From Tubulanus polymorphus (Eukaryota > Animalia > Nemertea), in contig NC_134027.1 of the NCBI RefSeq assembly GCF_964204645.1, positions 19,554,560 through 19,618,559 on the forward strand: 64,000 nt of DNA, written 5' to 3'. Positions 4,817 through 29,787 of the stretch are shown piece after piece (positions within the stretch are counted from its first letter, which is position 1; every line of letters starts with the position of its first letter). The position numbers were made by a program, and so were the translations under genes. The notes beneath the pieces were generated by a model. That model was not told where the DNA came from and ran no database searches. It saw only the letters and a list, made by a program, of their open reading frames with translations.

Positions 4817-5202
4817 AGTAATAGGGGTAATGGGCTTTCATATCAAAGGTTTAATGATCGAGTTCATTAATAACATATATTAAAAAACTATAATATATTT
4901 TCATAACCGCGTGCATTTCAGTTGAATAATAGAATAATTATTATCATTTGAATATATTTGATTATTTGAATTTGTGTATTGTAATTAAATCAATTGGTCG
5001 CGGAGCGGAGCGGTAGCGAAGTGGAGCGACCAATTGATTTAATACAATATGCTTTTTATATTATTGATATCTTAGAATAAATACTTAGTTTTGATATAAA
5101 ATGCACGCGGTTATGAAAATATATTATAGTTTTTTAATATTTTGTTTTTTAATGGGCTCGACCGTTCGACCTTTGGTATGAAAGCCTATTACCCCTATTA
5201 CT
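4817..5202. repeat. Terminal imperfect palindrome (fold-back) of element A
   Basis: AGTAATAGGGGTAATGGGCTTTCATATCAAAGGT... pairs with ...ACCTTTGGTATGAAAGCCTATTACCCCTATTACT; GC-rich apex near 5010. Confidence 0.9.
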
Positions 5203-6148
5203 CCTATACAATAATTTAATCTAATATGTGATTTATCTAAATAATTTTGATATCTTACAATGTTTTCTGGAATCGATCTATTTTTATCATTATGAATTGA
5301 ATCTTCAAATAATACTTTGAATTGTTTCTGCGCATCGAATGAAGTGTTATCATTTACAATTATTGGGGATCTTGTTTCAACTTGCGAAACCTAAAATACA
5401 TATCAAATAAGTTCTAATAGATTGATTTATTCTTTGTATTCCAGCTTTAGTAAAACCTTCACTATTTTCTAAAATGAAATTAACCCAACCATTATTGTTT
5501 TGTTGTTGTATATTATTATAATATTTTGGTAATTCATTCCAATTTAGTGTTCTTACATCTGAATTTGTCATTATTTTTCCAAATTCTTTAGTATATAATA
5601 TTCCTAATCCACCCATTGTTCCAATTTTTTGCTCTAAAATCTTTATTTGAATTAATATTAAATTCATTACATATTTTATAAAACTTAGAAAAATTAATAT
5701 CATTATTCAATTCTTTAAAATATTTTGAACCTGGTAAAGGACATTCTAATTCATCTAATATTAATTTTATTTGAAAATATGTATGAAATCTAAAGAGTGA
5801 TAACATCATTGGTAAACTTGGTTTGTTTAAATGATCATTCCAACTAATTCTACATCCTGTTGTCGCGCAATAAACAGCAAAATTTAATTGGTTCTGCCAA
5901 TACTTCATATTAGATTTCAATAACCATTGTTTTGCCTCATTTAAATTTTTAAAATTAATTGTATACACATGAAATATATTTTCCATCTTTACATGAAAAT
6001 TATTACTTTCAGTAACATAAATATATAAATCAATTAATGAATTTAAAACTTCATTTCTATATGAAATATCTTTATTAAAATCTATTGCTGGAATATAATA
6101 TTTTATTGATTTATTATATTGGAAAGCTTTTGGAAAACTATCTACCAT
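5203..6148 (-). pseudogene. Conserved Polinton protein (WQNQLNFAVYCATTGC family), frameshifted and truncated by element A
   Basis: ORFs 5588..6148 and 5377..5703 are homologous to 27479..28869. Confidence 0.8.
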
Positions 6149-6164
6149 TTATATAATAAAAAAA

Positions 6165-6590
6165 TTAATAATTTATTAATTCTTTTAATAATTTATCTTG
6201 TTCTTCAACTGTTATATGACCATTTAAACTTTTTATACAATCTAGTGTATTTTTCAATTTATTAATTTCTTTTATATTAGTTTTAATTTTTTCTTTATTA
6301 CTTTTTATATTCAATTTTGAACTTATACCAGTTAAAACGCTTGAACTTAATCCTAATACGCCAATTGATATAGCTAAAGGTGTTTATGGTGAAAATATTG
6401 CTAAAAATGTTATTACAGAACTAATTGTAACCGAACCACTTATAATCAAATAATATATAATTTTACTTTTTAAATATTTTTTCTTTTTTATCTTTAAGTC
6501 ACTTTCAAATTCTAATATTTGTTTTTCTAAATATATTTTTAATTTAGTTTTATTTATATCATGAGGAATAATATCAATATTATCATCCAT
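6165..6590 (-). pseudogene. Two-TM small viral protein, disrupted
   Basis: Homolog of 28886..29320 with a premature stop or frameshift at ~6384. Confidence 0.75.
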
Positions 6591-6609
6591 TTATTTAGCA
6601 AAAAAATTA

Positions 6610-7032
6610 CTAATTAGTAAATTTATACGCTACAAATATAACAATAACTGTTCCACCTAAAATCCATATTATTTCATATTTCTGTTGTTCTTTACTTGGG
6701 GTAAAATAATCTGATATTGTAGGTTTATGTAGATGTAATTTTTCTTTATTGGTTACCGTGTTATATAAACTCATTGCATCATCAACTGATTGAAAATCTC
6801 TATGTGAAATTTTCTGATCATATAATTCCTTGTTAATATAATCCATATAGTTTTCCCTTTTTTCTCTATATTCTTCTGCGGCTTTATTGTATTTCTCTAA
6901 TGCTAAGTTATGTCTTTTTTGTTCTGTTAATGATCCATTTTTATCAATATGTTTAAATAAATATCCACCACCAGTAAATGCTAAAGCGTTAACAATTGCT
7001 GATCCTATAATAGTTATAACTGCAGAAGCCAT
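6610..7032 (-). CDS. Conserved Polinton membrane-associated protein (MASAV..NALAFTGG, C-terminal TM)
   Basis: Intact 140 aa; near-identical to 29341..29763. Confidence 0.8.
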   Translation of the reverse strand: MASAVITIIGSAIVNALAFTGGGYLFKHIDKNGSLTEQKRHNLALEKYNKAAEEYREKRENYMDYINKELYDQKISHRDFQSVDDAMSLYNTVTNKEKLHLHKPTISDYFTPSKEQQKYEIIWILGGTVIVIFVAYKFTN

Positions 7033-7258
7033 TTATTTAGTAAAATAATTATGCATTTATATAGGAGGAATATATTTTTGTTTTTCCAAATAATCAATAG
7101 TTAATTTAGATAAAGTAACTGCTAATGTTGATTTTAAAATATAATTTATATCAAATCTATCAACATTAACACTTCATTTTAAATACTTTTTTTTAAACCA
7201 TTGAATAACCAACAGTTCCAACTGATAGTAATGCTAATATATGAATATAATGAAAAAA

Positions 7259-8014
7259 TTACTCTCTACATCTTATAACTAATTCATATATCACAGGAAA
7301 GTTATTTAAATCAATTAAATAACCATTATGATTACTTATTTCTAATTTGAAATTATCGAAATGTGGAATGCAAAGTTTAAAATCACATTCTGTTAAATTA
7401 TAATTTATTTGAGTTCCAAATTGTTTAACATTTTTTAATGGTAAAATATTTAATATACTAGAATTACATGTTGTATCTTTAGTTGCGTCAAATGTTTTTG
7501 TAGGATCAATTAAATTGCAATAAATATAAAAGTGAGTAGAAGTCATTAAATTTGTCTAAGTTTCGATACTTGAATAATCTCTATCTGGAAGAATTCCAAA
7601 CAGTTTAGCTAAAGGTTTTCTTACTAGAAATCTATGTTGTTCATTAGTTAACTTTATTCTTATTTTATTCGAACTATCACTTTTGATAAATTTAATTTCA
7701 AATCTAGCAGCTGCGCCCATTTTTAAACGAGCTCTTTTATTAATTTCTTGCGCTAATGTTTCTAAATTATATAATCCTGGTTTTAGATAAAGATGAAACC
7801 ATTTATTCAAATTTCTAACGTGAATTTTAAAAGCTAAATGATCAAGACTCTTATTCGATATATTATGAAAAGAATTACATAAACTTATATTAACTAATTT
7901 TAAATCAACACAATTCTTAAATTCTCTATCTAATTGAACTAGTAAATTATGTGATTTATAATTTGTAAGTTTTCTAGAATCAACAAATATTCTGTATTCT
8001 TTTAATTCTACCAT
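7259..8014 (-). pseudogene. Minor capsid (penton-like) protein, split
   Basis: IFVDSR, NSFHNI, LKPGLYNL and FYIYCNLI motifs; intact homolog at 34811..35569. Confidence 0.7.
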
Positions 8015-8082
8015 TATTTATAACACAAAAAAATTACTTCGAACCATTAAAAATTAATTTTAATAAAATCTTTCCTAAATAA

Positions 8083-8763
8083 ATGGATGAGAAGATACCA
8101 TGTGAAATTTGTGGTGAACTTATCAGAAAAAGTAATATGGCTCGACATATGAAAAAACATGATGAAAATTATAAACCCCCTAAAATAAACTGCCCAAAAT
8201 GTAATAAATTATTCTCAAGAAATTATGTTAAAAAACATTCAGAGAAGTGCAAAATTAATGGCGCAACAGCTAATGTTGATAGTAACGAAAGAAATAGTAA
8301 TTCTGTTGAAGTTGAACCTGAAATTATTTGGAAAAGACCTTTCTTATTCTATGACAAGGATAATATAAAAGATCATTTCTGCGAGCCTTGTCGAATAAAA
8401 TATAAGAAAACGTTACCAGATAATAAAGAAACAGTTGAAAAGTTAGAAAAACAATATAATGAATTAACAAGAAAAACATATTATTGTAAATATTGTAAAT
8501 TGATTATTACAACAAGTAATTCAAATCTACATAATAGAAAAATAAAACATAAAGAAAACGTAAGAAAATACCAAGAGCTTAATGAAGATCTATTACCATT
8601 AAATTATAAACAAAAATGCCCACAATGTAGTTATGCGACCTTAAGGCAAGAAGGTACTGTGTTATTTTGTAATGAATGTGGATGGCAAAAGAATTTATGG
8701 GGTGAAATTATATTTTATAGCAAAATCTTTAGGATTATTTACAAGTATTCTATAAACTGCTGA
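8083..8763 (+). CDS. Multi-zinc-finger protein (C2H2 and Cys4 ribbons); true C-terminus probably lost
   Basis: CEIC..HMKKH, CPKC..H..C, CKYC..H..H and CPQC..CNEC; TAAATG start; last ~20 codons read antisense into the intein fragment. Confidence 0.7.
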   Translation: MDEKIPCEICGELIRKSNMARHMKKHDENYKPPKINCPKCNKLFSRNYVKKHSEKCKINGATANVDSNERNSNSVEVEPEIIWKRPFLFYDKDNIKDHFCEPCRIKYKKTLPDNKETVEKLEKQYNELTRKTYYCKYCKLIITTSNSNLHNRKIKHKENVRKYQELNEDLLPLNYKQKCPQCSYATLRQEGTVLFCNECGWQKNLWGEIIFYSKIFRIIYKYSINC

Positions 8764-9363
8764 TGATTTCATAACATCCATGATTTTAAATGTTTTATTT
8801 GGATAAACTTCTTCACAATATTTCTTTATTCTTTCTAATAATATCAAATCTTGATTGCATAAATACCAACAATATTTATTACCCCAAACATATTTATACA
8901 CACCTGCTGAACCATCTTCCATAAAAAATCCTTTGATAAAATATTCTTTTTCTTCTAATGTTTCAGGTTCTATATTATAAATATTATCAATTATTTCATC
9001 AAATGACATATGATTCATTCTTTGGAAAAATCTTTTATGTAATAATTCATCTCCAATTTTTATATCAGTTGGTTTTATTTCATCGCCATTTCGTTTAATT
9101 AAACTATGATCTTCTGTAACATCTACAAACCCTAATTTAGTTCTAACTCTATAGATTTTCTTATTTGTTTTATGCCTAATAATATTCTTTAATTTTTTCC
9201 ATCCATTTCTTTTCCAAACATCCATTAAACCATTTATTTGTATTAATTCTTTTTCACCATATGAAATATAAAGTTCATTTTGTTTTGGAATTATTTCTGA
9301 AATTCTTCTTATCAATATTTTATCATTACATTTTAATAATATTGGGGTGTCAGCTGTTACAGA
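8695..9363 (-). mobile_element. Intein (Hint domain plus first LAGLIDADG block) inserted in pPolB motif C; C-terminally truncated
   Basis: In frame after ...KHIEILYFD: SVTADTPILL (block A), WKKLKNIIRHKTNKKIYRVRT, VDVTEDHSL (block B TxxH), YFIKGFFMEDGS (block C). The uninterrupted allele in B reads ILYFDTDSY. Confidence 0.9.
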
Positions 9364-12300
9364 ATCAAAATATAATATTTCAATATGCTTTTCGCCAAAA
9401 AGTCTTTTTCAAAATCTGTTGTAGATATGGTTCTCTGTTGGGTATTAAAATCTATATATTTTTCTAACCACTTCGATTGATTAAATTCAATATATCTATG
9501 TACTTTATTTATTTTCATTCCTTGTTTTAGATAAAATTTTAACATTCTATAATGAACAATATAATTATATTTATTATTTTGAGTAAGTATTAATTTTTCT
9601 GTAAAAACATGATCTTTCAATTTTATTTTCTTCTGGTATTCACTTAAATAACTATCATCTACAGTTAAATGTTCTGGGCAATAAGGTAAGTTTCTTGTTT
9701 TAAACTTTATATTTTCAGGATATTCAAAATCAACTGCAAAGAAATAACCAATTGGTGCTTCATCTTTTAAACTCGCAATTGCGCTTTCCCAATCAGTTTT
9801 ATCACCATTTTCAACTTCTGTTAATATAAAATCTTTATATGGTTGAGGTTGCATCATTGCCCAACCATATAAATTATTGGCGTCAATATATAATAATTTA
9901 TATTCATCATTTGCTTTAAAATACCTATCTCCCATAACACCACTAATTCCACCTCTAATTGATTTTTCAAATAATAAAACCATATCTGGTTCTTTTAATA
10001 AATTTAATTCTACGTTAGTATATTTCAAACCACATTGCCAGGTTAAACCAGGACTAGAGTAGCAATAACAAGGATCAACATTAAAATGATTCAAATTAAC
10101 TTCTCAAAATTTTTCAAATATGTCAGCTAATATCATAACATCTGATTTTAAGTAAAGATCAACTAATTCACCATGATTTTCTATCTTAAAGTGATTCCAA
10201 ATATTCAATGTTCTATTATATACTTCATCTTTAACATATTCATGTTTTAATTCATCATAGAAATGTTCTTTTAATAGTTCAGTTATGTTAAAATCATTAT
10301 GTGATTTATAAAATGAATAAGGAATTGCACCTTTATATCTTAATAATTTAAAATCTTGTTCATTTGGATAATAATATCGAGTTATAACAAAATCATTATC
10401 AACTAAACTTTTTGATAAATTATCTAATGAACTTGCTAGAAATCTATAAGAATCTAAAAATCTAATGCAACCAAATTGAAATGAAATATAATTTTCAGAT
10501 GTTTTAGCTTTATCATATTTTCTTACATTTACGCCATTCATAGCAGTATATTCTTCTATTTCTTGATTAATTGCGCCCAATTTTCCCGATAATTGTTTTA
10601 TAAATAGATGGGTATCATAGCCTGATAAATTATGAAATAATATTGGAACGAAATTTACTTTTTTAGCTCGTAAATTACAATCTTCATGAGCAGCTCCACG
10701 ATATTTTGAATTTAAATGATCATGATCACTAACTTTTTTATCAAATGAATAAAAAGGTTTTTCACAATAACAACAATGGGTTGCATAATTAAAATCAATT
10801 TCATCTTCTTTTGTCATAACTATTCTTTTATTTTTGTTTAATAATTCTGCAAAATCACTTTCAAATTCAATAATTTTGTTACAAAAATTATTAACTACAT
10901 CTTCACCTCTAAAAGAAATATATTGACTTTCATATAATTCAGGATGATTTGATTTTATATAAATTCCATAAGCAGCAGCTCTTTGATGAACTTTTTTGAT
11001 TGTGTTTATAATTGGTGGATCTTGAATTATATCTTCATTTAATTCATTTCCTTTATCCATTGATTTTAATAATTGCTTTTTGTTATATATTTCTTTTCTA
11101 TCTTGATCAGTTAATTCTTTATTCAACGATTCAAAATCCCTACAAATTACAAATGGAACAATATTCTTAAATTTATGATTAGTAAATTTCAATTTATAAT
11201 CTTTTTCTGTTGGCATTATTAATTTACGTTTTTTTATGTTTTAATAATGTATTCTCAGTCATAAATTTAGATTAACATTTTCTACATAGATAAATTTTAT
11301 TATGGTGATCACTTTCTGTTCTAAAGAATAAATCAATTTGTTTTAACCACATATAATGTTCATTTTCATCTTTTTTGTAATATAACAAATCTATAGCATT
11401 TTCATCATCATAATATTCTGTTAAATATAAAGCTTCCAATGTATAATCTTTAATATTTTCACCTTTTGTATTTGGTTATTGCATTAATTCGAATACATTT
11501 ATTTTTAAATTATTATTTTTTTCTATTTTGGGCATCATTTTTATAGTTACTGGATATTGATCAATTTTATATAATGTTTCATATTTCCGGTAATTTGTTA
11601 TTCTAAAACTATGCGTAATATTTTCTGTTTGGTGTAAGCAACTAATAATTGACCATAGAAAACATGTATTATCTTCATTTTGAATATTTATTACTGCTTT
11701 TGTTGTAAATGGTAATTTAATATAAGATGATGCTTTAATATCCTTTTCTGTTGTAAAGTTTGAATCATTTTTAAACATTTTATTACTTTTTGATGTTTTA
11801 TTTCTTTTTGTATTATAAACATTTAAATCTAAATATATAATTTCATTCAATGTTAAGCCAGAACCCTCAAAATATCTTTCTTCAATATGACGTTTAAATT
11901 CATTAAATATTTTTTCTAACTTCTCTTTTATTTGTGTTTTTGAAATTATTTCTTCAGAGTGTGTTTGAATATTATAATCCATTTTTTCTTCTGACTTTAT
12001 AAAACTTACTTTCCCAGAGATACTAATATTCAACATCTGTTATCAAATCTAGTATTTTTTCTATTATTTCATTAAATTTACTATAATCTTCTATTGTTGT
12101 TCCTTTAAAATCTAAATATAATAGCTGCAGGACCAATTTTACTATGTAATGTTTCTAAAATTTCAATTGTATCTTTTATTTCTAGTGAATCAATATAATT
12201 TCTAACATTTTCCATGTAAGGTTTATTTGAAATGGATTTAGTTTTTGAAGTTGGTTTTTTTAATTTTCAGGTTTATCATCAAAATAATCTTTTCCTAAAA

Positions 12301-12594
12301 CATTATTAATCAAATTTTGATGGTGTTTTTGTGATTCGAGATGTCTATTATAATTCCTTTTTACTATAAATTCATTACAAACTTCTCATTTTATTTCATC
12401 CACATTCATATCATTTAATCGTTCTTTTTTTCATTGGAATTTTCTGGAGTTTCAAAATCTATTACATTTTTTATACGATTTGCAGATTTTTCATGTCGTG
12501 ATTTTTGGGATTTATCGATGTATTTTTTAAAATATTGGCAATAATATTGATTTTTATTGACATTATTCTTTTCTGTATGTTTTTCATTCTCCAT
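9364..12594 (-). pseudogene. Protein-primed family B DNA polymerase (pPolB) of element C, fragmented
   Basis: Fragments 11476..12036 (NEDNTCFLWS, OTU-like Cys), 10104..11216 (DFES, FHNLSGYD, DHDHL endonuclease VII-like) and 9357..10094 (IRGG, YIDANNLYG). Motif B is deleted. Confidence 0.9.
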
Positions 12595-12753
12595 TTATAA
12601 GGAAAAAAAATATTTGTGGTGATGAGTGGTGTCTTGACCTCTCGACCTCTGGTATGAAAGCCTACTTTTCCTATTACTTCATTATACACAACTGAAAAAT
12701 TACTTTGGATCTTACAGAGACACGTACGCATTGATTTTTGAAATCTTTTGAAC

Positions 12754-14084
12754 CTACTCGAATACTTCTAGGATTACTGCAATAGCACGACGTTTTGCAA
12801 TGGCTGATGGAAGAGGTTCATTTCCATGAGTAACATTATCATCATCAATTTGTTCTTCATCACCTTCATTTAAATTATCTTCTACTGAGTCACTACTTAA
12901 CAAACTGATATTGTGCAAGACAAAACAACTTATTATAAAATCTACCAGTCTGTTTGGGTCATGCATATCAATATATTTAAGTCGGCGCAAACGACCTTTC
13001 AATAAGGCAAAGCATTTTCGATCCTCATTCGGGTAGAACTGTGTAGAAAGTTGTAGTTCTTTTCTAATTTTTCTAGTCCACCGGTATCTCGGAATGGTGT
13101 TAGTATGACATCACTCAATTCATAGGCCGAGTCTGCCAATAAATGGCTATTTTCTGGAAAAAGCTTACGTCGCTTCTCAAGATCTTCACAAGCAAGTCCA
13201 AGTTTGGAGTTTTTGAGCACTCGGGAATCATGTGTCGAACCTGGCCATCCAACATAGACATACGTGAAAATCATCCGATGATCACATATGGCGGCAACAT
13301 TTATCGAATGGTATTTCTTACGGTTAAGAAACGTCTCTGGGTTCTTTACCGGTGTCTTAATAGGAATGTGTGTACCATCCAGAGCACCAATTACCTTTTA
13401 AAATTAAGAAGATAACGTTTTATAAACACAATTGGTCAATATGATTATTCTACAAAATCAGAGTGGTATTAGACGATACGACCTACCTTTGGAAATTGTC
13501 GCATTTGCTCAAATCCACGAAAAACTTGATAAATATTGTCACCAGTCGGCCACTTAATAAATTTCTTCAGCAGCTTGTTGTTCATGACTTGGCTGATGGT
13601 GGCTGGAAGAATAGACAATATGTAGCAAGTCATATTTTAATTTTTTCTGCATTTATCTCTTGATCAATATCAACTCTTAAGGTGTCGGCTACAGTTCTCT
13701 GAAAAATAATCAAACAACGAACTCACCAATTATCTTAAAGACTGAAGCTTCACAAACTCCAAATACGTCAGCCACTCTTATCAACGGGTCTTGAGTAGCA
13801 CAATAATAAACATAAATCAACATTAGTTTTTCGTACGATATACAAGAGTTTCTGTCAGCAGCGAGTATAGGGATGAGATGGTCTTTCAGGACATCAAAGG
13901 TCGTTCTGCTAATTCTAAACCGAGCCTTGAAATCGTCCGGTGTATATCTACTGATAATTGCAGACAGAGAGTTTTGAATTCGAGGTATTTTTTTTTCTTT
14001 TAGATTTTTGAGTTCTTCAGTAACCTTAAATTCGTCAATTACGTCGTCCTCGAATAATTTTCTTTTTCGACAATGGTATACCAT
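12754..14084 (-). pseudogene. PIF/Harbinger DDE transposase (HARBI1-like), frameshifted, with intron 13395-13486
   Basis: FKARFRISRTTF, FPK|VIGALDGTHIPI joined across a GT-AG intron, GWPGSTHDSRV, LADSAY, RMRIENA, CFVLHN. Confidence 0.9.
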
Positions 14085-14130
14085 TGTCGAAAAAGAAAAT
14101 TATTCGAGGACGACGTAATTGACGAATTTA
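14027..14130. repeat. Perfect 104-bp palindrome with no spacer
   Basis: Arms read base by base around the centre CAATGGTA|TACCATTG (14078/14079). Confidence 0.9.
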
Positions 14131-14361
14131 GATTTAGAGATACCGGCCTACGCAAGAGCGCGTATCCGGTACACTGAAACATTCATCTATCACAAAAGTA
14201 CATAAAATGTTACGAGCGATTTCACGCCGCACGTTTACTTCCTGGTACGCCATTTTGTTGCAGCAACGCGGCGGCCGTTTATTTAAGCGAATTCGATTAT
14301 GGATACGCTAACATACGCAGCAGATAACGCGCGTTATGACGAGTTGCTTAAATAAAAACGC

Positions 14362-14842
14362 CTCAAGACTCTTAAGGTAAATTTATTGCAGGCTACACTG
14401 ATAAATATAAAATTAATATTATGATATAAAATTGATTTTAGAAGGACTAAACTCGTAGATTCATAATAAAAATATGAAAAGTACCAGGACTCGAACCAAC
14501 AATCAAAATTGGGCCGTCAAGTGCTGCCACCATGTGACACCTGGCAAACAGTCTTTGCATCGTCAGCAGTTGCAAAATGTTTTTTGATAATTTTAGGACA
14601 TTTATAGTGATTTCTAGCCTTTGCAAAGAGGTTTTATCATATCCAACGTAGCGGTAGGATATCACATATAAAGGATTATGCGTGACGATATATAGTAAGT
14701 AAAATATCGCCCATTGAAAACATGAAGCGAGAGATTTTCATTGCAAATGAACTAGAGCATGGCGGATTTAGGTTCCAATTTCCGGTTCTGACTAGCGCCA
14801 TCAAACGAGTAATTCAAGAACTTGAATTTGTCGATTTCCCGT
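14362..14842. repeat. Dispersed composite repeat, copy 1 (copy 2 at 44635-45022)
   Basis: 14362-14450 is the reverse complement of 44635-44722; ~14530-14842 matches ~44738-45022 directly. Confidence 0.75.
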
Positions 14843-15239
14843 TTAGGATTAGATAAGAGCCAAATTGGCTTATAAACATCGTTAAAACCACGCTTCAATA
14901 GTTCCCGCCGCCTTACATTCGTCTCATAGCTGCCTTGTGCAAATTAACTCAAGGAGTGGTACAACGTCATACCTAATGTGTTTTTATCCAAAGGGTCTGA
15001 GCCTGATAAAAGATCCATTACTCGAGTAACCGCAGTTATACCACTTAGGTTATAATTCTGGATTGTTTTGACGCTTTAAATCGAAAGCAGCTGACTCTTT
15101 GCTTAACTTGGACCAAATTGGTTGATTTACTTTTTGGTGACAGCCAAACTATATCAGGCCAAGCATATTGCCTTACAGATTTCTCTAATTTCTCAAATAA
15201 ATCCTTCTGAATATCTGAATTTTCTCCACTAAACCCCGA

Positions 15240-15449
15240 TGTGGTTTCTCCGTCATAAGGAAGTAAACATCAACGCTTAGTTTCATACGCTTCGACAGAT
15301 TTATTTTCTTCATAAATCAGCATTAAACGAAGGTTTAAAACAATTAGCTCATCGCCATTTCTTTCTTCAAACCACGCTACCCTTTAATTCCGTTTTTTCT
15401 AGTCTTCCCCCCAGAGGGCAGCACATCCTAGCTAAAATTGTTGCCAACA
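15240..15449 (-). repeat. 3' LTR of BEL/Pao element
   Basis: TGTGGTTTCTCC...GTTGCCAACA, nearly identical to 40736-40950; adjacent PPT GGAGGAGGGTA on minus. Confidence 0.95.
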
Positions 15450-15798
15450 TACCCTCCTCCTTAAGGGAACCTACCCCTTAACGAAATTACAATACAGGCA
15501 CAATTTTCGATAGCCCATTTGAAAATTGCAAAATTGATTAACCAACAATAATCTATGAAAAATTAACACAAAATTTAACTAGAGATAAACACTAGAGGCT
15601 TATGGCCTTAATAAAACCCCATCTAAGATACATGCCAAATAAAACAAAAACAAAATCATCAACATACGTAGCTTACAGTATCCAACATCTCATACATCAT
15701 AATTAAGTATTAAATGCTTCAAATAATCATAAGGATTATTAGCACAACTGCAGTTTAACAAATACAGCCAACTGAAAACATTTTAAAGTTTACACTTC

Positions 15799-17906
15799 TT
15801 AATCGTCACACTCTAGGGAAACCAGCTTATCGATAGGACGAGTTATAACGCGATTGCCCTTAGTTTTGACTAAAACGCTTCGAACTAGACCATCATTTCC
15901 TGGGAAGACCTGCATAACGCGCCCCAACGGCCAGAAATTCCTAGGAGTGGCATGATCGGCCACTAGGACTATGTCGCCTATACGCAAATTCCGTTTCGCA
16001 TCGAACCCTTTATACCGGGCTTGCGCACGTAAAAGACTGGATTCTTTCACTTGATGATCCTTCGTCAGATCTCGCACGTCTCGAGAAAAGCTCTCGCTCT
16101 GAACGCTTTTCAGAATCAACGTTTCGGCATTCCTAAGCTCAGCCACGGTAATGTGCTTAGGTTTCGTACATGTAGTAGCATTTCGATCCAAACCTCGTCT
16201 ACGGCTGATGACAGCTTCTTTGAGCGACTTAACGAACCTTTCGACCCAAGCAACGACGACTTTAACTTTATACCAGGTCGAGAATTTGTTTACGACTTCC
16301 ATTATAACCGACGGAGTCGCACGTTGCTCGGCAATCTGTCCGAACGATTTAAGCCCAGAATTTTTCAGCTCGGGATCGTCGACCAAAAACGCGAGATCCG
16401 GAGATACGTTCGGCCATTTCGGCTTTTATCCTTTCGAAGAAACTCCGGTCCAAATAACCAATTCGACGTGCAGGTCATCTGGTGAGCAGGAAACCCCCTG
16501 GAAACGTCATAAGCAGGGTTAGACTTGCCATCGATAAATTGCCACTGCGATGGACTCGACGCGTCGTGGATTACCGCCAACTTATTAGAAACGAATGTCT
16601 TGAATCTTTTATCGCGATTCCTGATATATTTAATGACGGTAGTAAAAACGGAATCATCGACCGGTAATTCTAAATCATTCTTTATCGCTTTATCGATATT
16701 CACGGACACCACGGCAGCAGACAATTCGAGTCTGGGTATCGATACAGTTTTCAATGGAGCCAGTCACGATTTACAAGTCATGAGCGCAGTGTGTATTTCG
16801 CCGAGTTCATTTTCGACCCTCATATAGGACACCGTGCCGTAACCAACTTCGGACGCATCGGAAAAATGATGAAGTTGTGTATTCACTACACGACCGAAAC
16901 CAGGCGGAAATAAACAACGCGGTATCTTTATTTCCTCGAGCAACGAAATATCCTCCAACCACGCGTTCCATTTATCTACATAGACGAGTGGGATAGGGTC
17001 ATCCCAATTGAGCCCTAGCTTACACAGCTCTTGGCCAATAATCTTTCCGGGAAGCATTATCGGCGCCACGAAACCAAGAGGATCGTATATCGAGCGAGTC
17101 ACCGACAGCAGACCGCGGCGAGTTAACGGGCGAGGTTTCAGTTTGACTTTAAACGTGAAAACATCATTCTCCATATCCCATAAACATCCAAGCGCTCGCT
17201 CGCTGGGCAGATCATTTGAGCCTAGCTCTCTGAGACTAGCTGCTCTCTCCTCGGGTGGAATAGCCTCAAGTAACGCTCTGGAATTCGACGCAAATTTCGT
17301 GAGATTAAACCTGCCCTTTCGTAATAGAGTCTTTACGTTTTTCGCAGTTCTTATTGTGTCGTGTTCATCGTCTAATGATTTCAAGCAATCGTCGACGTAG
17401 AAGTCTTTCCTCACGGTATCAAACGTTGTCGTGTCAAAATCATCTTTATTGTCTTCGGCCGTTTTTTTTAACGCGTAATTACATACACATGGAGAAGAGA
17501 TCGCACCGAAAATATGCACGTTCATGCGATACGGGACGGGTTCAATAGCCAGGTCTCCATCTTGCCACCGCAAGAACCTCATGGCGTCACGATCCCTGCT
17601 CGGCACTCTGACTTGGTGAAACATATTTTCAATGTCAGCCATAAATGCAAATCGGCCTTGACGGAAACGCATCAGGACCCCCACCAAAGCGTTGGTGAGG
17701 TCAGGACCCTGGATAAAGCACATCATTCAGTGACACATCCCTGTACTTAGCGGAACAATCATACACCACACGCAGTTTCCCAGGTTTCTGCGGATGGAAA
17801 ACTGGATGATGCGGTAAGTACCAGATCGTCGAATCTGGAGATTCATCACTTAAACGATTCGGAACGACTTCGGCGAAACTACGTTCGACTAATTTATTAA
17901 TATAGT
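15799..17906 (-). pseudogene. BEL/Pao pol (RT, Pao RNase H, C-terminal domain); integrase core deleted
   Basis: WYLPHHPV, QGPDLTN, ADIENMFHQV, FYVDD, HHFSDASEVGYG, IPRLELSAA, NFWPLGRV..PGNDGLVR. Confidence 0.92.
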
Positions 17907-18502
17907 AGTAATAGGGAATATCTTGTTTCAGATCAAAGGTCGAACGGTCGAGTTCATTAAAAACAAAACGTTAAAAGTAATTTAAAACTATAATATATTT
18001 TCATAACCGTGTGCATTTTATATTAAAACTAAATATTTATTCTAAGATATCAATAATTTAAAAAGCATATTGTATTAAATCAATTGGTCGCTCCACTTCG
18101 CTACCGCTCCGCTCCGCGACCAATTGATTTATTTACAATACACACATTCATATAATCAAATATATTCAAATAATAATAATAATTCTATTATTCAACTGAA
18201 ATACACACGGTTATGAAAATATATTATAGTTTTAAATTACTTTTAATATTTGTTATTAATGAACTCGACCATTCAACCTTTGACCTGAAACAACATATTC
18301 CCTATTACTCTTAAAATATTCATATATATGAATAAAATATAAATGAATAACTTCTAAAATCAATTTTAATAAAAAATTTAGTATTAAAATGGAAGCAAAT
18401 AAGTACTACTGCCCAACATGTAATATCAATATAGATAAATCCAAAAAAGCAAGACACAATAAAACTAAAACACATTTAGAGAATAAATTGAAACTAGAAT
18501 AT
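17907..18502 (+). repeat. Left TIR of B (~596 bp; first 403 bp form a fold-back)
   Basis: 18111-18502 is the reverse complement of 39683-40074; internal palindrome 17907-18309. Confidence 0.9.
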
Positions 18503-18640
18503 TTACAGTTATATTCAGAACAGTTAACAAAGGCAAAGAAATTTATTGAATTATGGAATAATGATCCAAATAATGAACAATACGTTGAGGAATTTGATAT
18601 CAAGGATCCGATGTTTATACTAGAACATGATTCTATTTGA
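18389..18640 (+). CDS. 83-aa chimeric ORF: pPolB N-terminal zinc finger plus HNH-protein C-terminal tail
   Basis: First 38 aa match 39365..39796; LQLYSEQLTKAKKF...EEFDIKDP matches the end of the HNH protein. Confidence 0.6.
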   Translation: MEANKYYCPTCNINIDKSKKARHNKTKTHLENKLKLEYLQLYSEQLTKAKKFIELWNNDPNNEQYVEEFDIKDPMFILEHDSI

Positions 18641-18719
18641 ACCTATATACATTCCATGTACAGAGCTATGGAATAAATCTATAAATTCACAGCTGTTACA
18701 GCCGTTACTATGACGCCGA

Positions 18720-18890
18720 GACATTATGACTCATAATATTACAAACGTGCAGAGAAAATTCTAGAAAGGTGTGCTGGAACTCTGAATAGAGATGACATGT
18801 CATAATCAGAAACGTGTAGAATATTCTAGAAAGGCGCGCCGGAACCAGATGATGTGGCATAATCAACGGCGTGTTCATTCTAGAAATCGC
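18720..18890. promoter_or_regulatory. ~60-70 bp repeats with HSE-like motifs
   Basis: GAAaaTTCtaGAA at 18754-18766, GAAtaTTCtaGAA at 18819-18831, TTCtaGAA at 18878-18885, TGACTCA near 18727. Confidence 0.5.
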
Positions 18891-19429
18891 CCCGGAAATG
18901 AACAGACGCTGTAACATTGTGCTCAGGATATTCTATCCCTCGAAACGAAATTAGGAGTTTATAGTTTACAATTATAAATCTAAATGTAAGTACTGTTTTT
19001 TGTAGTTATTAGGGCTATTAAATATGAAACCTTTATATATATTTAAGTGTATTTAGTATATCTTTTAGATAGCTAGAGTTGCCGCTAATATCTTTTAGAT
19101 TAATAAAACGCCATACGCATCAAGAAGTGATAGAGAAACTCAAGATACTCTTTCTGACTGAGGAATCAACAGCAATGGGGATATCGAACCAATAGAAATT
19201 AGCACAAGAAACACAAGAATCGCCAAAAGATCGACGAAGAAACTATATAAGAATTTCAAAAACATTAAGACTCCAATGATTAAGTTTAACATTTGTTGTT
19301 GTTGTTAAATATTTACCAGCAATTGAAAAAATGTTTTTAATTATAGATTTTATATATAGAAATCAAATGATGTATTGGAAGAAACGGCCGAACAACTTGT
19401 ATAATGTATTGTGTAAATCTGTTTGGTGA

Positions 19430-19870
19430 ATTTTTATGTTCGGTCGTTTCTATTCAGAATGAATATATAATTAGGATTAGCGCATGCGCATTAAGCAAAA
19501 GCGCGCATGAATGCGCGGTTTGCCTAATGCGAACACGTTTAGATGTTTCATGTCGGTCGTTTCTATTTACATAATTATATATTCATTATGTAAATATAAT
19601 TATGATTAACGCATGCGCATTGATCAAAAACGCTCCTATAAGAGCGGTTTTGCCTAGTGCACATGCGTTTGAATTTTCTATGTTCAGTTGTTTCTATTTT
19701 ACAGAATGAATATATAATTATGATTAGCGCATGCGCATTGATCAAAAACGCTCCTATAAGAGAAGTTTGCCCAGTGGTATTATTTAGATATTTCATGTCG
19801 GTTGTTTCTATTATGATTAACGCATGCGCATTAAGCAAAAGCGCGCATGAATGCGCGGTTTGCTCAGTGG
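19430..19870. repeat. Degenerate ~100-130 bp tandem repeats with GCGCATGCGCA motifs
   Basis: (G/A)CGCATGCGCAT at ~19480, 19609, 19727 and 19820. Confidence 0.8.
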
Positions 19871-20001
19871 TATGATTTAGATATCAAGGAATCGAAACAA
19901 CTTATCAAAAGCAGCGAGGAATGAAAAAGGATGACGTTGGTCGAAGAAATGGAAGAGGATTCTAAAATATTAACCAATTTAGTAAAAAATACGTATAATA
20001 A

Positions 20002-20680
20002 ATGGAACCAGAACAACCACAAATTATCAATATTACAAATGACGCTGGTGTTATAAATATATATTACAAGAAGTGTTCTAAATGTGAATTAGATAAATTA
20101 GCTTTAACAGAATTTAGTAAGCGTAAGATTAGCAAAGATGGTTTTCAATATTGCTGTAAAACTTGTTTTAAACTATATACCAAACAATACCGAGAAGATA
20201 ATATAGAACATTATAATTATTATATGGCAGAATATATGAGAGAAAGATATCAAACAGATCTTAATTTTAGATTGAAACAATGCTTAAGATCTAGATTAAC
20301 ACAATTATTCAACAAAGAAACACATTCAGAAACACTATCTAATTTATTGGGTTGTTCAGATGAATTTCTCAAATCATGGATTATATTTCAATTCGATGAT
20401 AAAATGAATATAGATAATTATGGGGATTATTACCATATTGATCACGTGTTACCAATATCGAAATTTAACATGAATGATGAATACAATAAAAAAACTTATT
20501 TGGGGTTGGAAAAATTTAAGACCTCTTGAAAAGAAGGAAAACATAATTAAATCTAATAAACTAGATTTACAGTTATATTTAGAACAGTTAACAAAGGCAA
20601 AGAAATTGATTGATCAATGGAACAATGATCCAAATAATGAACAATACGTTGAGGAATTTGATATCAAGGATCCGAAATGA
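20002..20680 (+). pseudogene. HNH endonuclease, frameshifted in an A-run near 20490
   Basis: ORFs 20002..20529 and 20474..20680 together reconstruct 2455..3129. Confidence 0.85.
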
Positions 20681-20981
20681 CTTATCTGGACAGTTATAAT
20701 TACTGCTCCTAATAGATAAACAAAAGTAGTGAGATATCAAATAGAATTCAAATAAAATATATTAAAAAAACAATAACTTCAACTAGCCATTATTTCTATT
20801 TTAATTTTTAATATTTTCTTTTCAAAAGAGAATACTTTATATCACAAATAAAAAATACTAAAAAAACAATAACTAATACTAAAATTCTTTACTTTTAACT
20901 AAGCTAGTATTAATCGAAAGAGATACTGGTATCATTTTATAATACTTATAATATTTTTCTTATTAAATTTCTCTAATATAA

Positions 20982-21617
20982 ATGTCAAAGAAATCTAATA
21001 AGAATAGTATTGATATTGAAAAAACATTAGATGATTTGGGCATAAGTGATAATAAGGATCCAGTTGTTTCTAATTCTATTCAAGTTAATAACAATATTGA
21101 TTATGAATACTATTTATATTGTAAACACCATCTTGAACTATTGATTGCTAGCGGAAAGTGTAGAGAGTTTTTAACTAAGACTATTACTTTTCAAGAATTA
21201 GATGTTATGAAACCAGATAAAGTAATAAAATATTTTAAGATTTATGAAGAAGCTAGATTAACTAGAATAAATGATTCTATTTCAGATGGTATTGTCAAAT
21301 GTTATTCAAAATTATGTAACCAGTTAATACCAATTAAATTATGTAACCAGTTAATACCAATTAATGATGAAAATAAATTATATAGTGATTTGAAAAATGA
21401 CTACTTAGTTATGACTGAATTACAAAAATGGGTTGGATATGCTTCATTCCAATTAGGATCGGTTATGACATTAATCTCTACTGGTGTCATAACATTTTCG
21501 AATATCAAGCCTATGGAATATAAATCAGGTAAGAACGAAACAGATGGCGCTGTACTACAACCAAACGTCGAAACAGAAAATGAATCAGAACAAAAATTAA
21601 CTAAAATAAATGAGTGA
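20982..21617 (+). CDS. Polinton hypothetical protein (211 aa; 9-aa in-frame duplication KLCNQLIPI)
   Basis: Homolog of 1549..2151. Confidence 0.8.
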   Translation: MSKKSNKNSIDIEKTLDDLGISDNKDPVVSNSIQVNNNIDYEYYLYCKHHLELLIASGKCREFLTKTITFQELDVMKPDKVIKYFKIYEEARLTRINDSISDGIVKCYSKLCNQLIPIKLCNQLIPINDENKLYSDLKNDYLVMTELQKWVGYASFQLGSVMTLISTGVITFSNIKPMEYKSGKNETDGAVLQPNVETENESEQKLTKINE

Positions 21618-21960
21618 TGATGTTAAGAAAAAGGCTAGATCCGAGAAACAAATTAAATGGGCAAGAGAATTAGGTAAAAGATCTTCAGAATTAAAAAAAA
21701 GCTAAGAAAAAGAAATTAACTGATATAAATGAATCACAGACTTTATCTGATAATGATTCAAATAATAATCCATCTGATTCTTCTAATGCTGGAAGTAATT
21801 ATAAATTATATATTACAATTGGATCGGTGTAATATATAAATCAAAATTCAAATCTGATTATAACAATAATGATTCCGATGATAATAAACCTATTATACCA
21901 GAAAATAAGTCAAATCATAAAACCATTGAAACTAATTCTAAATTATTATTAATGGATTAA
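21610..21960 (+). pseudogene. Small basic TM protein, frameshifted
   Basis: Homolog of 1212..1556 with an extra A near 21700 and a deletion in the TM segment. Confidence 0.7.
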
Positions 21961-21966
21961 AATAAG

Positions 21967-23052
21967 ATGAAAAAAGAACAATATTTAAGAGAGTTATATT
22001 ATAACCCAGAGAGTGAAGTATCATATTCTAACGTTTTAGAATTATGGAATAAAATTAAATCTGATAATGGTGGTATAAAATATAGTGAATTGAAATCATG
22101 GTTACAAAATCAACCAACATATCAAATCCACAAGAAAATGGATAAAACTTATTTAACAAGAAAAGTTATGGTTTCATATATCGATCAACAATGGCAAGCA
22201 GATTTAATTGACATGAAGAACTTAGAAGAATACAACAAAGGATATTTCTGGATACTGAATGTTATAGACATATTCAGTAGATACGCATTGTCAATTCCAA
22301 TCAAAAATAAAACTGGTATAGAAGTGACAAATGCTTTTAAATCTATATTTAAAGAAGCTATTCCAGATAAGATACAATTTGATGAAGGTAAGGAATTTTA
22401 TAACAAACATTTCAAAAAACTATTATCTGATAACGATGTAGATTATTTTTCAACACTCTCAGATAAAAAAGCATCTATTATAGAAAGGTTTAATAAAACA
22501 TTGAAAACTAGAATGTGGAAATATTTTACTGCTAATGAAACATATATTTATATCGATGTGTTAGATGATTTGGTGAAAGGTTATAATAATTCTAAACATA
22601 GTTCTATAAATATGAAACCTATACAAGCTAGAAAAGAAGATAATTCAGAAATAGTTTGGAATATTTTATATGGAGCGTTTGTTACACATGATTTCGGAGA
22701 ACCAAAATTTAAAATTGGACAACACGTAAGAATATCTAAATATAGAAAAACATTTTATAAAGGTTATACCCCTAATTTTACAGAAGAAATATTCAAGATT
22801 AAAAAGATAATATTAACTAAACCATTTGTTTATAAATTAGAAGATATAAAAGATGAAGAAATATTAGGTTATTTCTATGAACAAGAATTATCACTTGTAC
22901 CAAATCCAGATGAAATAGAATACAAAATAGAAAAAGTATTGAAAACAAAAACTCTTGAAGGAAGAAAGTATTCTTTGGTTAAATATAAAGGATACGATGA
23001 TAAATTTAATGAATGGATTTTATCTAGTAAAATTAAAAGAATAAATGAATAA
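21967..23052 (+). CDS. rve integrase with chromodomain
   Basis: DDE motifs as in 120..1208; intact 361 aa. Confidence 0.95.
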   Translation: MKKEQYLRELYYNPESEVSYSNVLELWNKIKSDNGGIKYSELKSWLQNQPTYQIHKKMDKTYLTRKVMVSYIDQQWQADLIDMKNLEEYNKGYFWILNVIDIFSRYALSIPIKNKTGIEVTNAFKSIFKEAIPDKIQFDEGKEFYNKHFKKLLSDNDVDYFSTLSDKKASIIERFNKTLKTRMWKYFTANETYIYIDVLDDLVKGYNNSKHSSINMKPIQARKEDNSEIVWNILYGAFVTHDFGEPKFKIGQHVRISKYRKTFYKGYTPNFTEEIFKIKKIILTKPFVYKLEDIKDEEILGYFYEQELSLVPNPDEIEYKIEKVLKTKTLEGRKYSLVKYKGYDDKFNEWILSSKIKRINE

Positions 23053-23656
23053 AGATTTATTGATATTTGAACCGCATAATATGTTAGTTACTGGTGTAAC
23101 AAACTGTGGTAAAACACATTTCATATTAGACTTGTTAGAAACTATTTATAAAAATCATTTTGATAATATAATATTATTTTGTCCTACTTATGAAATGAAT
23201 AAAACATATAATAGAGATATAGTTAAGATAAAAAAGTTTATTATATTAGATCCTAAAACAGTAAAAGAAAATTTAGATAATTGTATAAAAATAGCAATTG
23301 ATACTTATAAAGGATCAAATACATTATTCATTATAGATGATTGCGCAAATTTACATGATTCAAAAGTTAGAGAAAGTGAGTTATGTTATCTAGCTTTCTC
23401 TGGAAGACATTTCGGGATAACAACATGGGTTTTAAATCAAAAATATAATTCAATTGTTAAAGACTTTAGGGAGAATATAAGATTTCTAGTTTTATTTTAT
23501 AACAAAGATAGAAAATCTATGCAACAATCATTAGAAGAAAATCAAATTATACCTACTGAATTACATGATGAATATATGAATAAATTAAAGAATAATAAAG
23601 GTTCAAAATTATTACTGAGACTACAATTTCCCTATGAATATAAATTTATAAAATAA
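23045..23656 (+). CDS. A32/FtsK-like DNA packaging ATPase
   Basis: Walker A GVTNCGKT, Walker B LFIIDD, SGRH arginine finger, VLNQ, FRENIR. Confidence 0.92.
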   Translation: MNKDLLIFEPHNMLVTGVTNCGKTHFILDLLETIYKNHFDNIILFCPTYEMNKTYNRDIVKIKKFIILDPKTVKENLDNCIKIAIDTYKGSNTLFIIDDCANLHDSKVRESELCYLAFSGRHFGITTWVLNQKYNSIVKDFRENIRFLVLFYNKDRKSMQQSLEENQIIPTELHDEYMNKLKNNKGSKLLLRLQFPYEYKFIK

Positions 23657-23671
23657 CTATTTATATATCTA

Positions 23672-23790
23672 TGTATTAGATACCCTATTAGATACCCTAA
23701 TACCTGATACCCCATTAGATACCCTAATACCTGATACCCTAATACCTGATACCCTATTAGATACCTTAAATACTTAAAACCCCCTTTTTT
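23672..23790. repeat. Short tandem repeats (GATACCCTAATACCT-like) between the convergent gene blocks
   Basis: About 8 GATACCC-type units; a related tract lies in element D at ~44225-44305. Confidence 0.75.
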
Positions 23791-23824
23791 ATTTACTATT
23801 ATTTTATACAATTTTCAACTTTCA

Positions 23825-24720
23825 TTACTTTTTGAGTGTTAGATAATTACTTTCTGAATCACTTTCATCATTACTCTCCAATTCACTATCATACCCCATC
23901 AATTTTTTCAAATTCTCTACCGAATTTTCTTCTTCAAATTCTTTATTATTTTTATACTTATTTTTCACCTTTTTTACCGAATCATCAATAGTTGTTTCAT
24001 TGTTATGCTTATTCATCCAATCAAATTTATCATTATTTTCTACTTTATGTTTCATAGAATCTTTATTAGTGTTTGCTCCTAATATTTCATTTACAGTGTT
24101 TGATCCTAATATTTCATTAGCATCGGTTAAATCTAATTCATCTTTATTAGGTGTTGCTAATAAAAAATCTTCATATAATTCTTTACCATTTACTTTTTTA
24201 TTTGAAACAAATTTTGTATCATATCTAAATGGGTGTTCTATAAATTCTCTTCAACCAACACGTTCTATAACATTAGTAATATGTGAATTTGTATTCATAT
24301 GTTTATTCCAATTTGATGGAGCGTTTGAAAATTCACCTTTACAATAATCACAATAATTTCTATTTTTACTAACATTTAATATCATTGCATTATTATATGT
24401 AGTAGGTATTACATTATTAGATGTAGTAGGTATTACATTATTAGATGTAGTAGGTATTACATTATTAGATGTAGTAGGTATTACTGTAGTAGGTATTACA
24501 TTATTAGATGTAGTAGGTATTACATTATTATCAATTACATTACTTAAATTATCAACAACTTCACTTTTATTATTATCGATTTCTATTAGTTTAGTTTTAT
24601 AAATTTTGAAAATAGGATCAAATATCAAAGCTATATTACAAGGTATTACATAATATAAACCATCATTATTTTCATGTGTATCGATTATGGAATATGTTTA
24701 TATACTTTACCTCCTTCCAT
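23825..24720 (-). pseudogene. Low-complexity zinc-finger protein with NNVIPTTS repeats, frameshifted
   Basis: TAAATG start at 24720; ORFs 24251..24628 and 23825..24055; CDYC..HMNTNSH finger; 24-bp minisatellite at ~24395-24530. Confidence 0.6.
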
Positions 24721-24752
24721 TTATATAATATATTTTTATTAAAGTTAAAATT

Positions 24753-25999
24753 TTAATACATAACACTATCTAATTGTGAATTTACAATATTTAATTGCGC
24801 GTCAGATATAATATAAATGTGCATTTTGAAATTTAGACTTCCTTTTTTCTATGTCATGAATAATTGTATTCCATCTTTAGTGTTTTGTAGTTTTTTTCCA
24901 GAACCATGTAATGAATTATCCTCTGTTGTTCTAAAATCTAACCATAATGCATATCTATTGCCGGTATAATAATCAATTTGATTAATATTACAATTTTCAG
25001 ATGATTTCACTTTTTCATTCATAAAATGTTTTCTATTTCTGGCCATTGATCAATCATTCTCATTCCTTGACAAAATATTTTATTTGCTATTCCTTCGATA
25101 GTTATTTCTACTTTTGTTATTTCAGGATTATAATACTTATCAACCTGTATTGCACCATTAGAATATGTTGCAATTGTAAAAAATATTAATATACCTTTAA
25201 TAGATCTTCTTGGGAAGTTAATATTCTCATTAACAATTTCATCATTTGCATTAATATTTACAGTTTTAAATTTATCAATATAATCATATAATAATGAAAA
25301 TCCTTGATTGTATTGAGTTTGAATTGTGTTAGCAATATTTTCATCAGTTACTGTATCATATTCTAAACATATATTCGATAATTTATAACTCATATCTTTA
25401 ACAACGCTAGATAATACAATTTCATTTACAGAAGCAAATGTTATCTCAAATATAATATCTTCTTGAATTGCGTATTTATATAAAGGTGCATTGTTATTTA
25501 TCAATTCAAAGTCTAATGGAATTTTATATTTGCTTCCATAAATCTTTTTTATCAAATTATCTGCGGTACGAGTTACTATTGCGTCATTAGCTCCTGATCT
25601 TAATTTATTATGGTTTTCCGATTGGATGCCTTGAAATATCATATTATTTCTATTTTCTTTTGTTAACTATAAATCTTTATAATGCATAAATAAATTATAA
25701 TCATCTAATGAGATAACTGTTTCTGGACCAATTTTTATAGTTAATTTTTTAATCAAATATCTCCCAACATTATCAACAACATAATTATTATCATGACCAG
25801 TTACTTTTATATCGGCAGATAAATAAATACTATTTGGAACATAAAAAGTATTTTGTGTTAATCGAGGAATTCTAACGTATAAAGTTTCATCGGGATTAAT
25901 AATTGAAGGATTATGAGTAATTATATGATGTGATCTTTCTGCTTTAATAGCATTAGATATTCTAGAAATCTTAGAAGGACTTATATAACTCCCACTCAT
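24753..25999 (-). pseudogene. Major capsid protein (double jelly-roll, hexon-like), disrupted
   Basis: THNPSII..LYVRIP..NVGRYLIKKL, YKIPLDFE, NICLEYD, RSIKGIL, YALWLDFRT..LHGSG resemble invertebrate Polinton-like MCPs (recalled). In-frame TAG at 25667, frameshift at ~25030, further break at ~24850. Confidence 0.8.
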
Positions 26000-26019
26000 T
26001 TATTTAACAAAAAAATTAA

Positions 26020-27462: not shown

Positions 27463-27478
27463 TTACATAATACAAAAA

Positions 27479-28869: not shown

Positions 28870-28885
28870 TTATATAACTAAAAAA

Positions 28886-29320: not shown

Positions 29321-29340
29321 TTATTTAGCAAAAAAAATTA

Positions 29341-29763: not shown

Positions 29764-29787
29764 TTATTTAGTAAAATAACTACGCAT

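Follow-up and report, generated by a model that had tools for sequence, protein, structure and literature searches.

A broken intein in a Polinton DNA polymerase of the nemertean Tubulanus polymorphus and its predicted self-splicing, probably homing relatives

A truncated intein in motif C of a Polinton polymerase

A stretch of 64,000 nucleotides from the nemertean Tubulanus polymorphus (contig NC_134027.1, positions 19,554,560 to 19,618,559; the window, analysed at full length) holds two abutting elements, B and C, each with a gene for the DNA polymerase of Polintons, a family B enzyme that is protein-primed (pPolB). In element C this gene is interrupted at YFD/TDS, in the catalytic motif C of the polymerase (a slash marks the insertion point throughout), by the first part of an intein (Table 1). 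The minus-strand reading of the frame 8695-9408 is LFGEKHIEILYFD, in which an insert starting with Ser follows the ILYFD of motif C from position 9363, as had been proposed in an earlier annotation made from the letters alone (the sequence-only reading). The insert is a broken copy of a genuine LAGLIDADG intein in a Polinton protein-primed polymerase, and its identity as an intein is virtually certain. Ser1 of block A, the TxxH of block B and the LAGLIDADG block C are all present at this pol-c site, as that reading had them, whereas the terminal Asn of block G and the +1 residue are deleted. As homology to full relatives stops at 8707, blocks D to G are gone, and the window copy is dead, capable of neither splicing nor homing. 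The sequence-only reading had also called it dead, with blocks E-G and the C-extein deleted; block D is missing as well, and the homology ends at 8707 rather than at 8695.

The insert scores 33.8 bits against TIGR01445 (intein_Nterm; cut-off 24.5, E 5e-8), matches PI-PkoII in the PDB (E 4e-5) and is 65% identical over 207 residues to the full intein of a relative, P0001. Its match to Pfam Intein_splicing (E 1.1e-5) falls under the gathering score because the copy is cut short. This low score would also suit a hedgehog-type or bacterial intein-like (BIL) Hint domain, which cleaves and does not splice, or a chance resemblance. Either is hardly credible beside the TIGR01445 score above cut-off and the internal LAGLIDADG endonuclease, terminal Asn and +1 Thr of the relatives described below. 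The N-extein matches Pfam PF03175 (E 9e-6) and also PF02945, and is 56% identical to P0001. Both pPolB copies of element B hold the empty allele, which the sequence-only reading had noted for B. On the opposite strand, a Cys-rich zinc-finger open reading frame (ORF; zf-U1, 8083-8763, plus strand) runs into the truncated end of the intein; it has no counterpart in B.

Table 1. Features of the intein-bearing element, its neighbour and the flanking host DNA, in window positions
Feature	Positions	Strand	Basis or remark
Element C (intein carrier)	5010..18105		Inverted repeats ~86% alike; ends approximate; DDE_Tnp_4 and Pao nested within
Deletion junction removing intein blocks D-G and C-extein	8706..8707	-	Loose read ends on either side, 95 and 138
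Truncated intein, 219 of ~350 residues (N-terminal splicing region and first half of LAGLIDADG endonuclease)	8707..9363	-	Profile and PDB matches
Block C, first LAGLIDADG motif	8911..8943	-	Of the three second-position differences found in the window copy alone, one lies here
Block B T-x-x-H	9106..9117	-	Translation; T and H invariant in intein alignment
Ser1, first residue of block A	9361..9363	-	Sequence; identical junction in all full relatives
Last 13 N-extein codons, first half of polymerase motif C (ILYFD)	9364..9402	-	92.5% DNA identity to both B copies over the 40 bases preceding the site
Deletion of ~270 nucleotides with frameshift, motif B lost	9403..9404	-	Comparison with relatives; loose read ends, 206 and 255
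N-extein, degraded Polinton pPolB (EndoVII/HNH-type)	9404..11240	-	Pfam matches; in-frame stop at 10101-10103
Element B, Polinton	18111..40074		392-bp inverted repeats (98.7%), rve integrase, A32 ATPase, two empty pPolB copies
Empty site YFD/TDS, first pPolB copy of B (31529-33007)	32059..32060	-	Reads ILYFD/TDSY
Empty site YFD/TDS, second pPolB copy of B (35970-37448)	36500..36501	-	Reads ILYFD/TDSY
Isolated host exon like group XV phospholipase A2	62095..62409	+	E 3.7e-19

In 1934 Mb of whole-genome reads of the same species from a separate study (read set X6), the intein is covered to a depth of ~190-260, which would correspond to perhaps tens to hundreds of copies if the genome measures 0.3-3 Gb. 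Reads depart from the window at both of its breaks, 8706/8707 and 9403 (counts in Table 1), so the window copy's two deletions are atypical for the species. A further 72 reads depart at the boundary of extein and intein (9364), where empty alleles must diverge. Three of the 22 intein variant positions listed are private to the window copy, all of them second codon positions. Of the remaining 19, 12 are third codon positions (p 0.007; expectation one third). This excess is a hint, not a measure, of purifying selection that may act on the intein; the listing comprises 40 of 235 variant rows, a point against making more of it. Among the X4 contigs over 8933-9353, one (depth 34) skips 419 bases within the intein and represents a further degraded variant. 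No RNA run is among the sequencing runs listed as containing the sequence, which has no bearing on expression, and a marine metagenome (X5), with 0.17 of the words and just 5 pieces, was left out.

Full-length relatives and the chromosomal setting

The relatives numbered P are protein sequences only, most of them from metagenome assemblies. In the longer-protein search, Polinton-type pPolBs take 8 of the best 10 places, headed by P0001 (1693 residues, 66%), and the remaining matches listed are mostly PF00136 polymerases and topoisomerases. By a strict pattern, 36 of 550 collected proteins show the N-junction together with a match to the pPolB extein. Complete Polinton inteins are 333-354 residues long and have Ser1, block B, two LAGLIDADG motifs with their acidic residues (block C, the only one left in the window, and block E), a terminal Asn and an in-frame return to TDS. 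The residues preceding Ser1 are YGD, YMD, YSD, ASD, SSD or YLD. Block G reads HN/T in most of the family, KN/T in P0004 and P0005 and SN/T in P0001; P0138, unlike the rest, has Ala at +1. Uninterrupted ORFs that join polymerase and intein, 1476-1693 residues in length, are present in P0001, P0005, P0248, P0442 and P0448. Of the 15 members listed for the P0433 cluster, 7 have such an ORF, and these lie on contigs of 95 kb to 1.0 Mb. P0317 and P0427 are fragments consisting of the intein alone.

Both P0143 and P0433 match Pfam LAGLIDADG_3 and Hom_end. A predicted model of P0143 (predicted local distance difference test, pLDDT, 70) has the HINT horseshoe fold with an inserted endonuclease. Its top PDB matches are TliVMA (E 1e-15), PhoVMA, PI-PkoII, PI-PfuI and PI-SceI, and no hedgehog entry is among the 41 PDB matches listed. 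The hedgehog, BIL and Vint class of Hint domains was rejected: an endonuclease is present, the flanks rejoin motif C and the solved-fold matches are inteins. In BFVD, the top named matches of the model are giant-virus polymerases, namely a phycodnavirus fragment (32%), Pandoravirus hades (26%) and Megavirus courdo11 (29%). The relatives agree with the sequence-only reading in several respects: Hint and LAGLIDADG profiles match (TIGR01445 in the window, Pfam on the relatives), the solved structures that come closest belong to inteins instead of hedgehog Hint domains, the reading frame resumes at TDS in many relatives, and the expected +1 Thr is found in most full ones.

Further searches enlarged the set of relatives. 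The one Polinton-type locus among 10 in the metagenome scan, L018, is a 4.2-kb contig with the polymerase alone. Among representatives at 50% identity, no additional pPolB-hosted full intein stands within the best 150 matches; such proteins are probably hidden under other representatives. No Polinton-like best match came from the IMG/VR scans (17 and 80 loci retained), and the matches of the GTDB scan are solely archaeal and viral-looking contigs. Type II topoisomerases (P0006, P0052, P0087 and others) bear related inteins at DQD/TDG, a site resembling the polymerase motif, hinting at non-allelic jumps that may have gone through sequence likeness.

The intein carrier very probably sits in an animal chromosome, because nested elements, reverse transcriptase (RT) fragments and a host exon occur together. 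Nested within C are a Harbinger-like DDE_Tnp_4 transposon (12754-14099) and a retrotransposon of the Pao type (15239-17726), and to the right of B follows host DNA with RT fragments and the isolated phospholipase A2-like exon. That most relatives come from metagenome assemblies would also suit an element outside the animal chromosome, be it a free virus, a protist symbiont or contaminant, or an assembly artefact. Such an origin is very unlikely: the window runs on into host DNA, C has Pao and DDE_Tnp_4 nested in it and has decayed like chromosomal copies, and the intein recurs at high depth in the reads of the separate study. In addition, the contig of one relative, P0144, was deposited and binned with a symbiont metagenome-assembled genome (MAG) from the gill of the clam Ctena orbiculata, which suggests a bivalve host for P0144.

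Element B shows Polinton hallmarks, with PF03175 polymerases, inverted repeats, an integrase and an ATPase, and a weak capsid match (E 0.005). Element C does have inverted repeats, and no integrase, ATPase or capsid was found in it. The two empty pPolB copies of B result from a tandem duplication of 4.46 kb (29455-33917 and 33898-38358; 99.7%), and each is broken into several ORFs upstream of the palm region. A Pao piece related to that in C sits immediately right of B, at ~40100-41100. Elements A, C and B abut, and their junctions (~5000-5020 and 18090-18110) are mirror images of each other. Element A (1-3513) is an inverted left arm of B (86.5%), so that both neighbours point their integrase arm at C; this may reflect a preference for inserting at the tips of elements, or a linked and segmented organisation.

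Full and empty alleles and the descent of the intein

Precise pairs of full and empty alleles are provided by C and B in the window, by P0124 and P0127, and by seven against six members of the P0433 family. This cluster has 136 members, 15 of them listed, and 13 of these span the site, 7 of them full and 6 empty. Full and empty alleles of the family differ by 10 fixed differences, every one of them between -7 and +44 residues from the site. The 120 columns around it thus hold 10, against 0 in the 1071 remaining columns (Fisher p 8e-11, a value that overstates independence because the copies are related). Full and empty copies agree at 98-99% far upstream, at 92% over the 61 residues that precede the site and at 83% over the 60 that follow it, and full copies are mutually 98.6-100% alike across the region around the site. 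Close outgroups carry 3-4 of the 10 full states and 1-3 of the 10 empty states at these positions. Flank co-conversion accompanies homing by homing endonucleases, and fixed differences clustered in this way are what homing with co-conversion would predict. From such full/empty comparisons, recent homing among Polinton copies, as the sequence-only reading had proposed, appears quite likely.

Two points weigh against this. The tract in the P0433 family could instead mark resistant or recombined empty alleles; resistant empties read the tract equally well, and either version needs a nuclease or recombination focused on the site. Also, P0124 (full) and P0127 (empty), with exteins 99.5% identical, have no difference near the site, which precise loss and homing explain equally. 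The empty members of the P0433 family (P0535, P0537, P0538, P0539, P0541 and P0542) show at least three motif C flanks (YTDCDS, YFDTDA and YGDTDA), and these variant flanks could be cleavage-resistant forms.

One intein lies in a different polymerase lineage. The pPolB of P0005, with a VSR-like domain by eye, has no significant BLAST match to the polymerase of B (best E 1.0), and its intein is 50% identical to that of the window and 39-50% identical to the other Polinton inteins. A lateral move between deep Polinton lineages is therefore needed, on the strength of one protein only. In the tree, P0005 may lie within or beside the other Polinton inteins (p-AU 0.31 in an approximately unbiased, AU, test).

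The same data could be read as a still-splicing intein that is now a passenger, gained once, inherited vertically and occasionally lost precisely, with no current homing and with flank differences that are ordinary Polinton recombination. Such a history would accommodate the absence of flank differences between P0124 and P0127, the three groups common to the intein and N-extein trees, and pairwise identities of intein and extein that run parallel (45 vs 46, 74 vs 66, 57 vs 49 and 76 vs 84%). It is unlikely, as both LAGLIDADG motifs are retained among inteins just 39-57% alike, no mini-inteins are seen among the Polinton matches, the fixed differences are concentrated at the site, and the intein of the unalignable P0005 lineage requires a lateral move.

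To place the family, careful trees of 59 rows and 45 rows were built, from which five long-branched rows were omitted and in which all roots are midpoints. The Polinton inteins form one clade (12 of 12 rows, support 100/100). Its neighbour is a clade of 13 rows (99/97) of inteins in PF00136 polymerases, including ChoanoV1 (P0457) and giant-virus MAG contigs; giant-virus gene context is found there for L028 (a GVMAG) and for L022, with minor capsid P11. We take the host of ChoanoV1 to be a choanoflagellate and its relatives to be Imitervirales. The ChoanoV1 intein is 39% identical to the window fragment, to which other Polinton inteins are 43-65% identical. A C-terminal signature, picked after the sequences had been viewed, occurs in all 9 full Polinton inteins, in 9 of 10 members of the ChoanoV1 clade and in 0 of 20 others. 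On these trees and this signature, a giant-virus PolB origin of the Polinton inteins is reasonably probable.

The sequence-only reading had likewise named a giant-virus PolB as donor, with co-infection as the route into a protein-primed PolB, and had likened the N-terminal region of the insert closely to the Mimivirus PolB intein. The donor is favoured, co-infection would be a supposed route, and the closeness to Mimivirus is not borne out. The N-extein tree has the same three main groups as the intein tree, with the empty B sister to C and the empty P0127 equal to P0124; the intein is therefore an old resident that co-diverged with its polymerase lineage, with empties scattered within. Capture seems to have happened once, long ago, with co-divergence of intein and Polinton polymerases since then, and not as a transfer into this animal's element. 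Mimivirus was rejected as nearest relative by the BFVD matches and the tree, in which Polinton inteins and then the ChoanoV1 clade are closer; identity is 29% for Megavirus courdo11, in a structural alignment of a full relative, and 39% for ChoanoV1, to the window fragment.

Several results count against so specific a descent. The branch joining the Polinton and ChoanoV1 clades has support of only 89/91 (59 rows) and 92/83 (45 rows), and the signature was chosen post hoc. Mean identity of the Polinton inteins is 41.3% to the ChoanoV1 clade, 41.3% to an Asgard archaeal intein and 40.0% to 17 others. An Asgard sister to the Polinton inteins survives the AU test (p-AU 0.065), and three of the five omitted rows, phage-type PolB inteins with long branches, attach to the Polinton side when included under a mixture model (98/93). 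Plain vertical descent, moreover, would also give identical intein and extein groups.

The donor might accordingly have been something other than a giant virus, such as an archaeal or phage PolB allele or an unsampled intermediate, with the same intein and the same homing. The Asgard result has its counterpart in L108:6266-10255 and L109:7685-11683, archaeal MAG PolBs (one from Promethearchaeota, Asgard) that hold a 336-residue intein at the same allele, 39-41% identical to P0143; these inteins are far closer (~41%) to the giant-virus and Polinton inteins than the PDB archaeal inteins are. The phage-type PolBs (phrog_262; L072, L078, L101 and related IMG/VR loci) carry inteins of 355-357 residues at VGD/TDG, and the trio is also sister to the Polinton clade in a 101-row quick tree. 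However, the ChoanoV1 clade is nearer than the Asgard rows in every careful tree, the trio, attached by a very long stem, reaches just 33% identity, and neither Asgard nor phage rows have the C-terminal signature. The attachment of the phage-type inteins to the Polinton side is either an artefact or a real exchange. Polintons and giant viruses, by contrast, inhabit the same eukaryotic host cells, and a donor of another kind is rather improbable.

A proposed cycle and comparison with known systems

We propose that an intein family resides at YxD/TDS of Polinton pPolBs, predicted to be self-splicing, likely to be homing and likely to descend from one ancient entry from a giant-virus PolB; we put this at a probability of roughly 0.78. 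On the class 1 mechanism established for inteins, splicing would start with an N-O shift at Ser1, aided by Thr and His of block B, after which Thr+1 would attack, the terminal Asn would cyclise and motif C would be religated. Because the insert splits the catalytic motif, the polymerase would be active only after splicing, and imprecise loss would be lethal to the element. The two-motif endonuclease would cut an empty YxD/TDS, and repair from a full copy would carry over the intein and flanking codons. Many Polinton copies per nucleus replicating side by side, or co-replicating viral genomes, would offer empty targets, and since these are met without meiosis, the persistence of an intein in an animal would be accounted for. 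The first entry would have required a Polinton and a giant virus in one cell. We lean, with less assurance, towards a wider version, in which the family is active and widespread in animal genomes, with giant-virus origin, long homing among chromosomal and viral copies in several invertebrate lineages, a jump between the two deep pPolB lineages and Polinton replication in animal cells that depends on splicing.

The intein is thus of a known kind, found in a host class and a genomic home for which we found no description in the literature searched. Statements on the papers cited here and below refer to their accessible portions. Inteins are mostly limited to microbes according to a review (PMC7765530), and surveys assign eukaryotic ones to fungi and algae, to certain protists and to giant viruses (PMC5784728, PMC10710043); the text of a survey of 257 inteins in 231 eukaryotes has none in animals (PMC5784728). 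In the accessible full texts, including PMC12220804, PMC3671162 and PMC2362128, no intein is described in a Polinton, a protein-primed polymerase or an animal chromosome, in line with the sequence-only reading, which called inteins essentially unknown from animal chromosomes and knew of none in Polinton pPolBs. The word intein is absent from the available text of PMC10748475, PMC8502044, PMC11131425 and bioRxiv 10.64898/2026.10.13.758929, and two supplementary files of PMC10710043 make no mention of Polintons or Mavericks, animals or metazoa, adintovirus or organellar. Subscription journals, Repbase, InBase and bioRxiv supplements lie outside this literature, and an earlier note is possible.

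Within reach of that literature, this is the first intein in a protein-primed polymerase. A family of inteins in animal-chromosome Polintons, if true, would redraw the distribution of eukaryotic inteins, and a multi-copy viral element that supplies empty targets without meiosis suggests why an intein can persist there. The intein also serves as a marker of contact between Polintons and giant viruses; were the family active as outlined, it would be a fossil of the two sharing cells of animals or their close relatives. It makes testable whether an endogenous Polinton polymerase is translated and active in animal cells, through the spliced product and the excised intein, and whether Polinton copies recombine, through conversion tracts. 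Annotators should be aware that intein-bearing genes resemble oversized or broken polymerases.

The closest known systems are the PolB site III (pol-c) inteins of giant viruses. Those of Mimivirus R322 (351 residues at YGD/TDS; PMC549080) and of ChoanoV1 PolB (QDY51635.1; 359 residues) occupy the YxD/TDS site as the Polinton inteins do, are similar in length to them (~350 residues) and share Ser1, Thr and His of block B, two LAGLIDADG motifs, a terminal Asn and the +1 Thr. They differ in host polymerase, which is PF00136 and delta-like in giant viruses and protein-primed PF03175 in Polintons, and in the insertion site, YGD in giant viruses, which has drifted to YFD, YMD, YSD, ASD or YLD in Polintons. 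Unlike the giant-virus inteins, those of Polintons form a separate clade and are carried by an integrated, multi-copy chromosomal element.

Inteins in viral-type DNA polymerases have also been reported on nuclear scaffolds of Klebsormidium, Tetrabaena and a labyrinthulid (PMC10710043). There, too, an intein entered a nuclear genome within an integrated viral polymerase gene. Those genes are giant-virus-like and belong to algae and a protist, whereas the intein described here is carried by a Polinton, most likely in an animal host, and its full and empty forms occur side by side in many copies.

Nuclease insertions of HNH and VSR type occur in Polinton pPolBs (PMC10748475) and have been suggested to stem from intein invasions (PMC11071308). 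They likewise place a nuclease domain in a Polinton polymerase, and the pPolB of the window has an EndoVII/HNH-type domain as well. They are described without Hint, however, and stay in the protein, whereas the inteins reported here combine Hint and LAGLIDADG in motif C and have precise empty alleles. Finally, PI-PkoII, PI-PfuI, TliVMA and PI-SceI have the same two-domain fold as the P0143 model, at 12-20% identity in structural alignments, but these archaeal and yeast homing inteins reside in different host proteins or hosts than those of Polintons.

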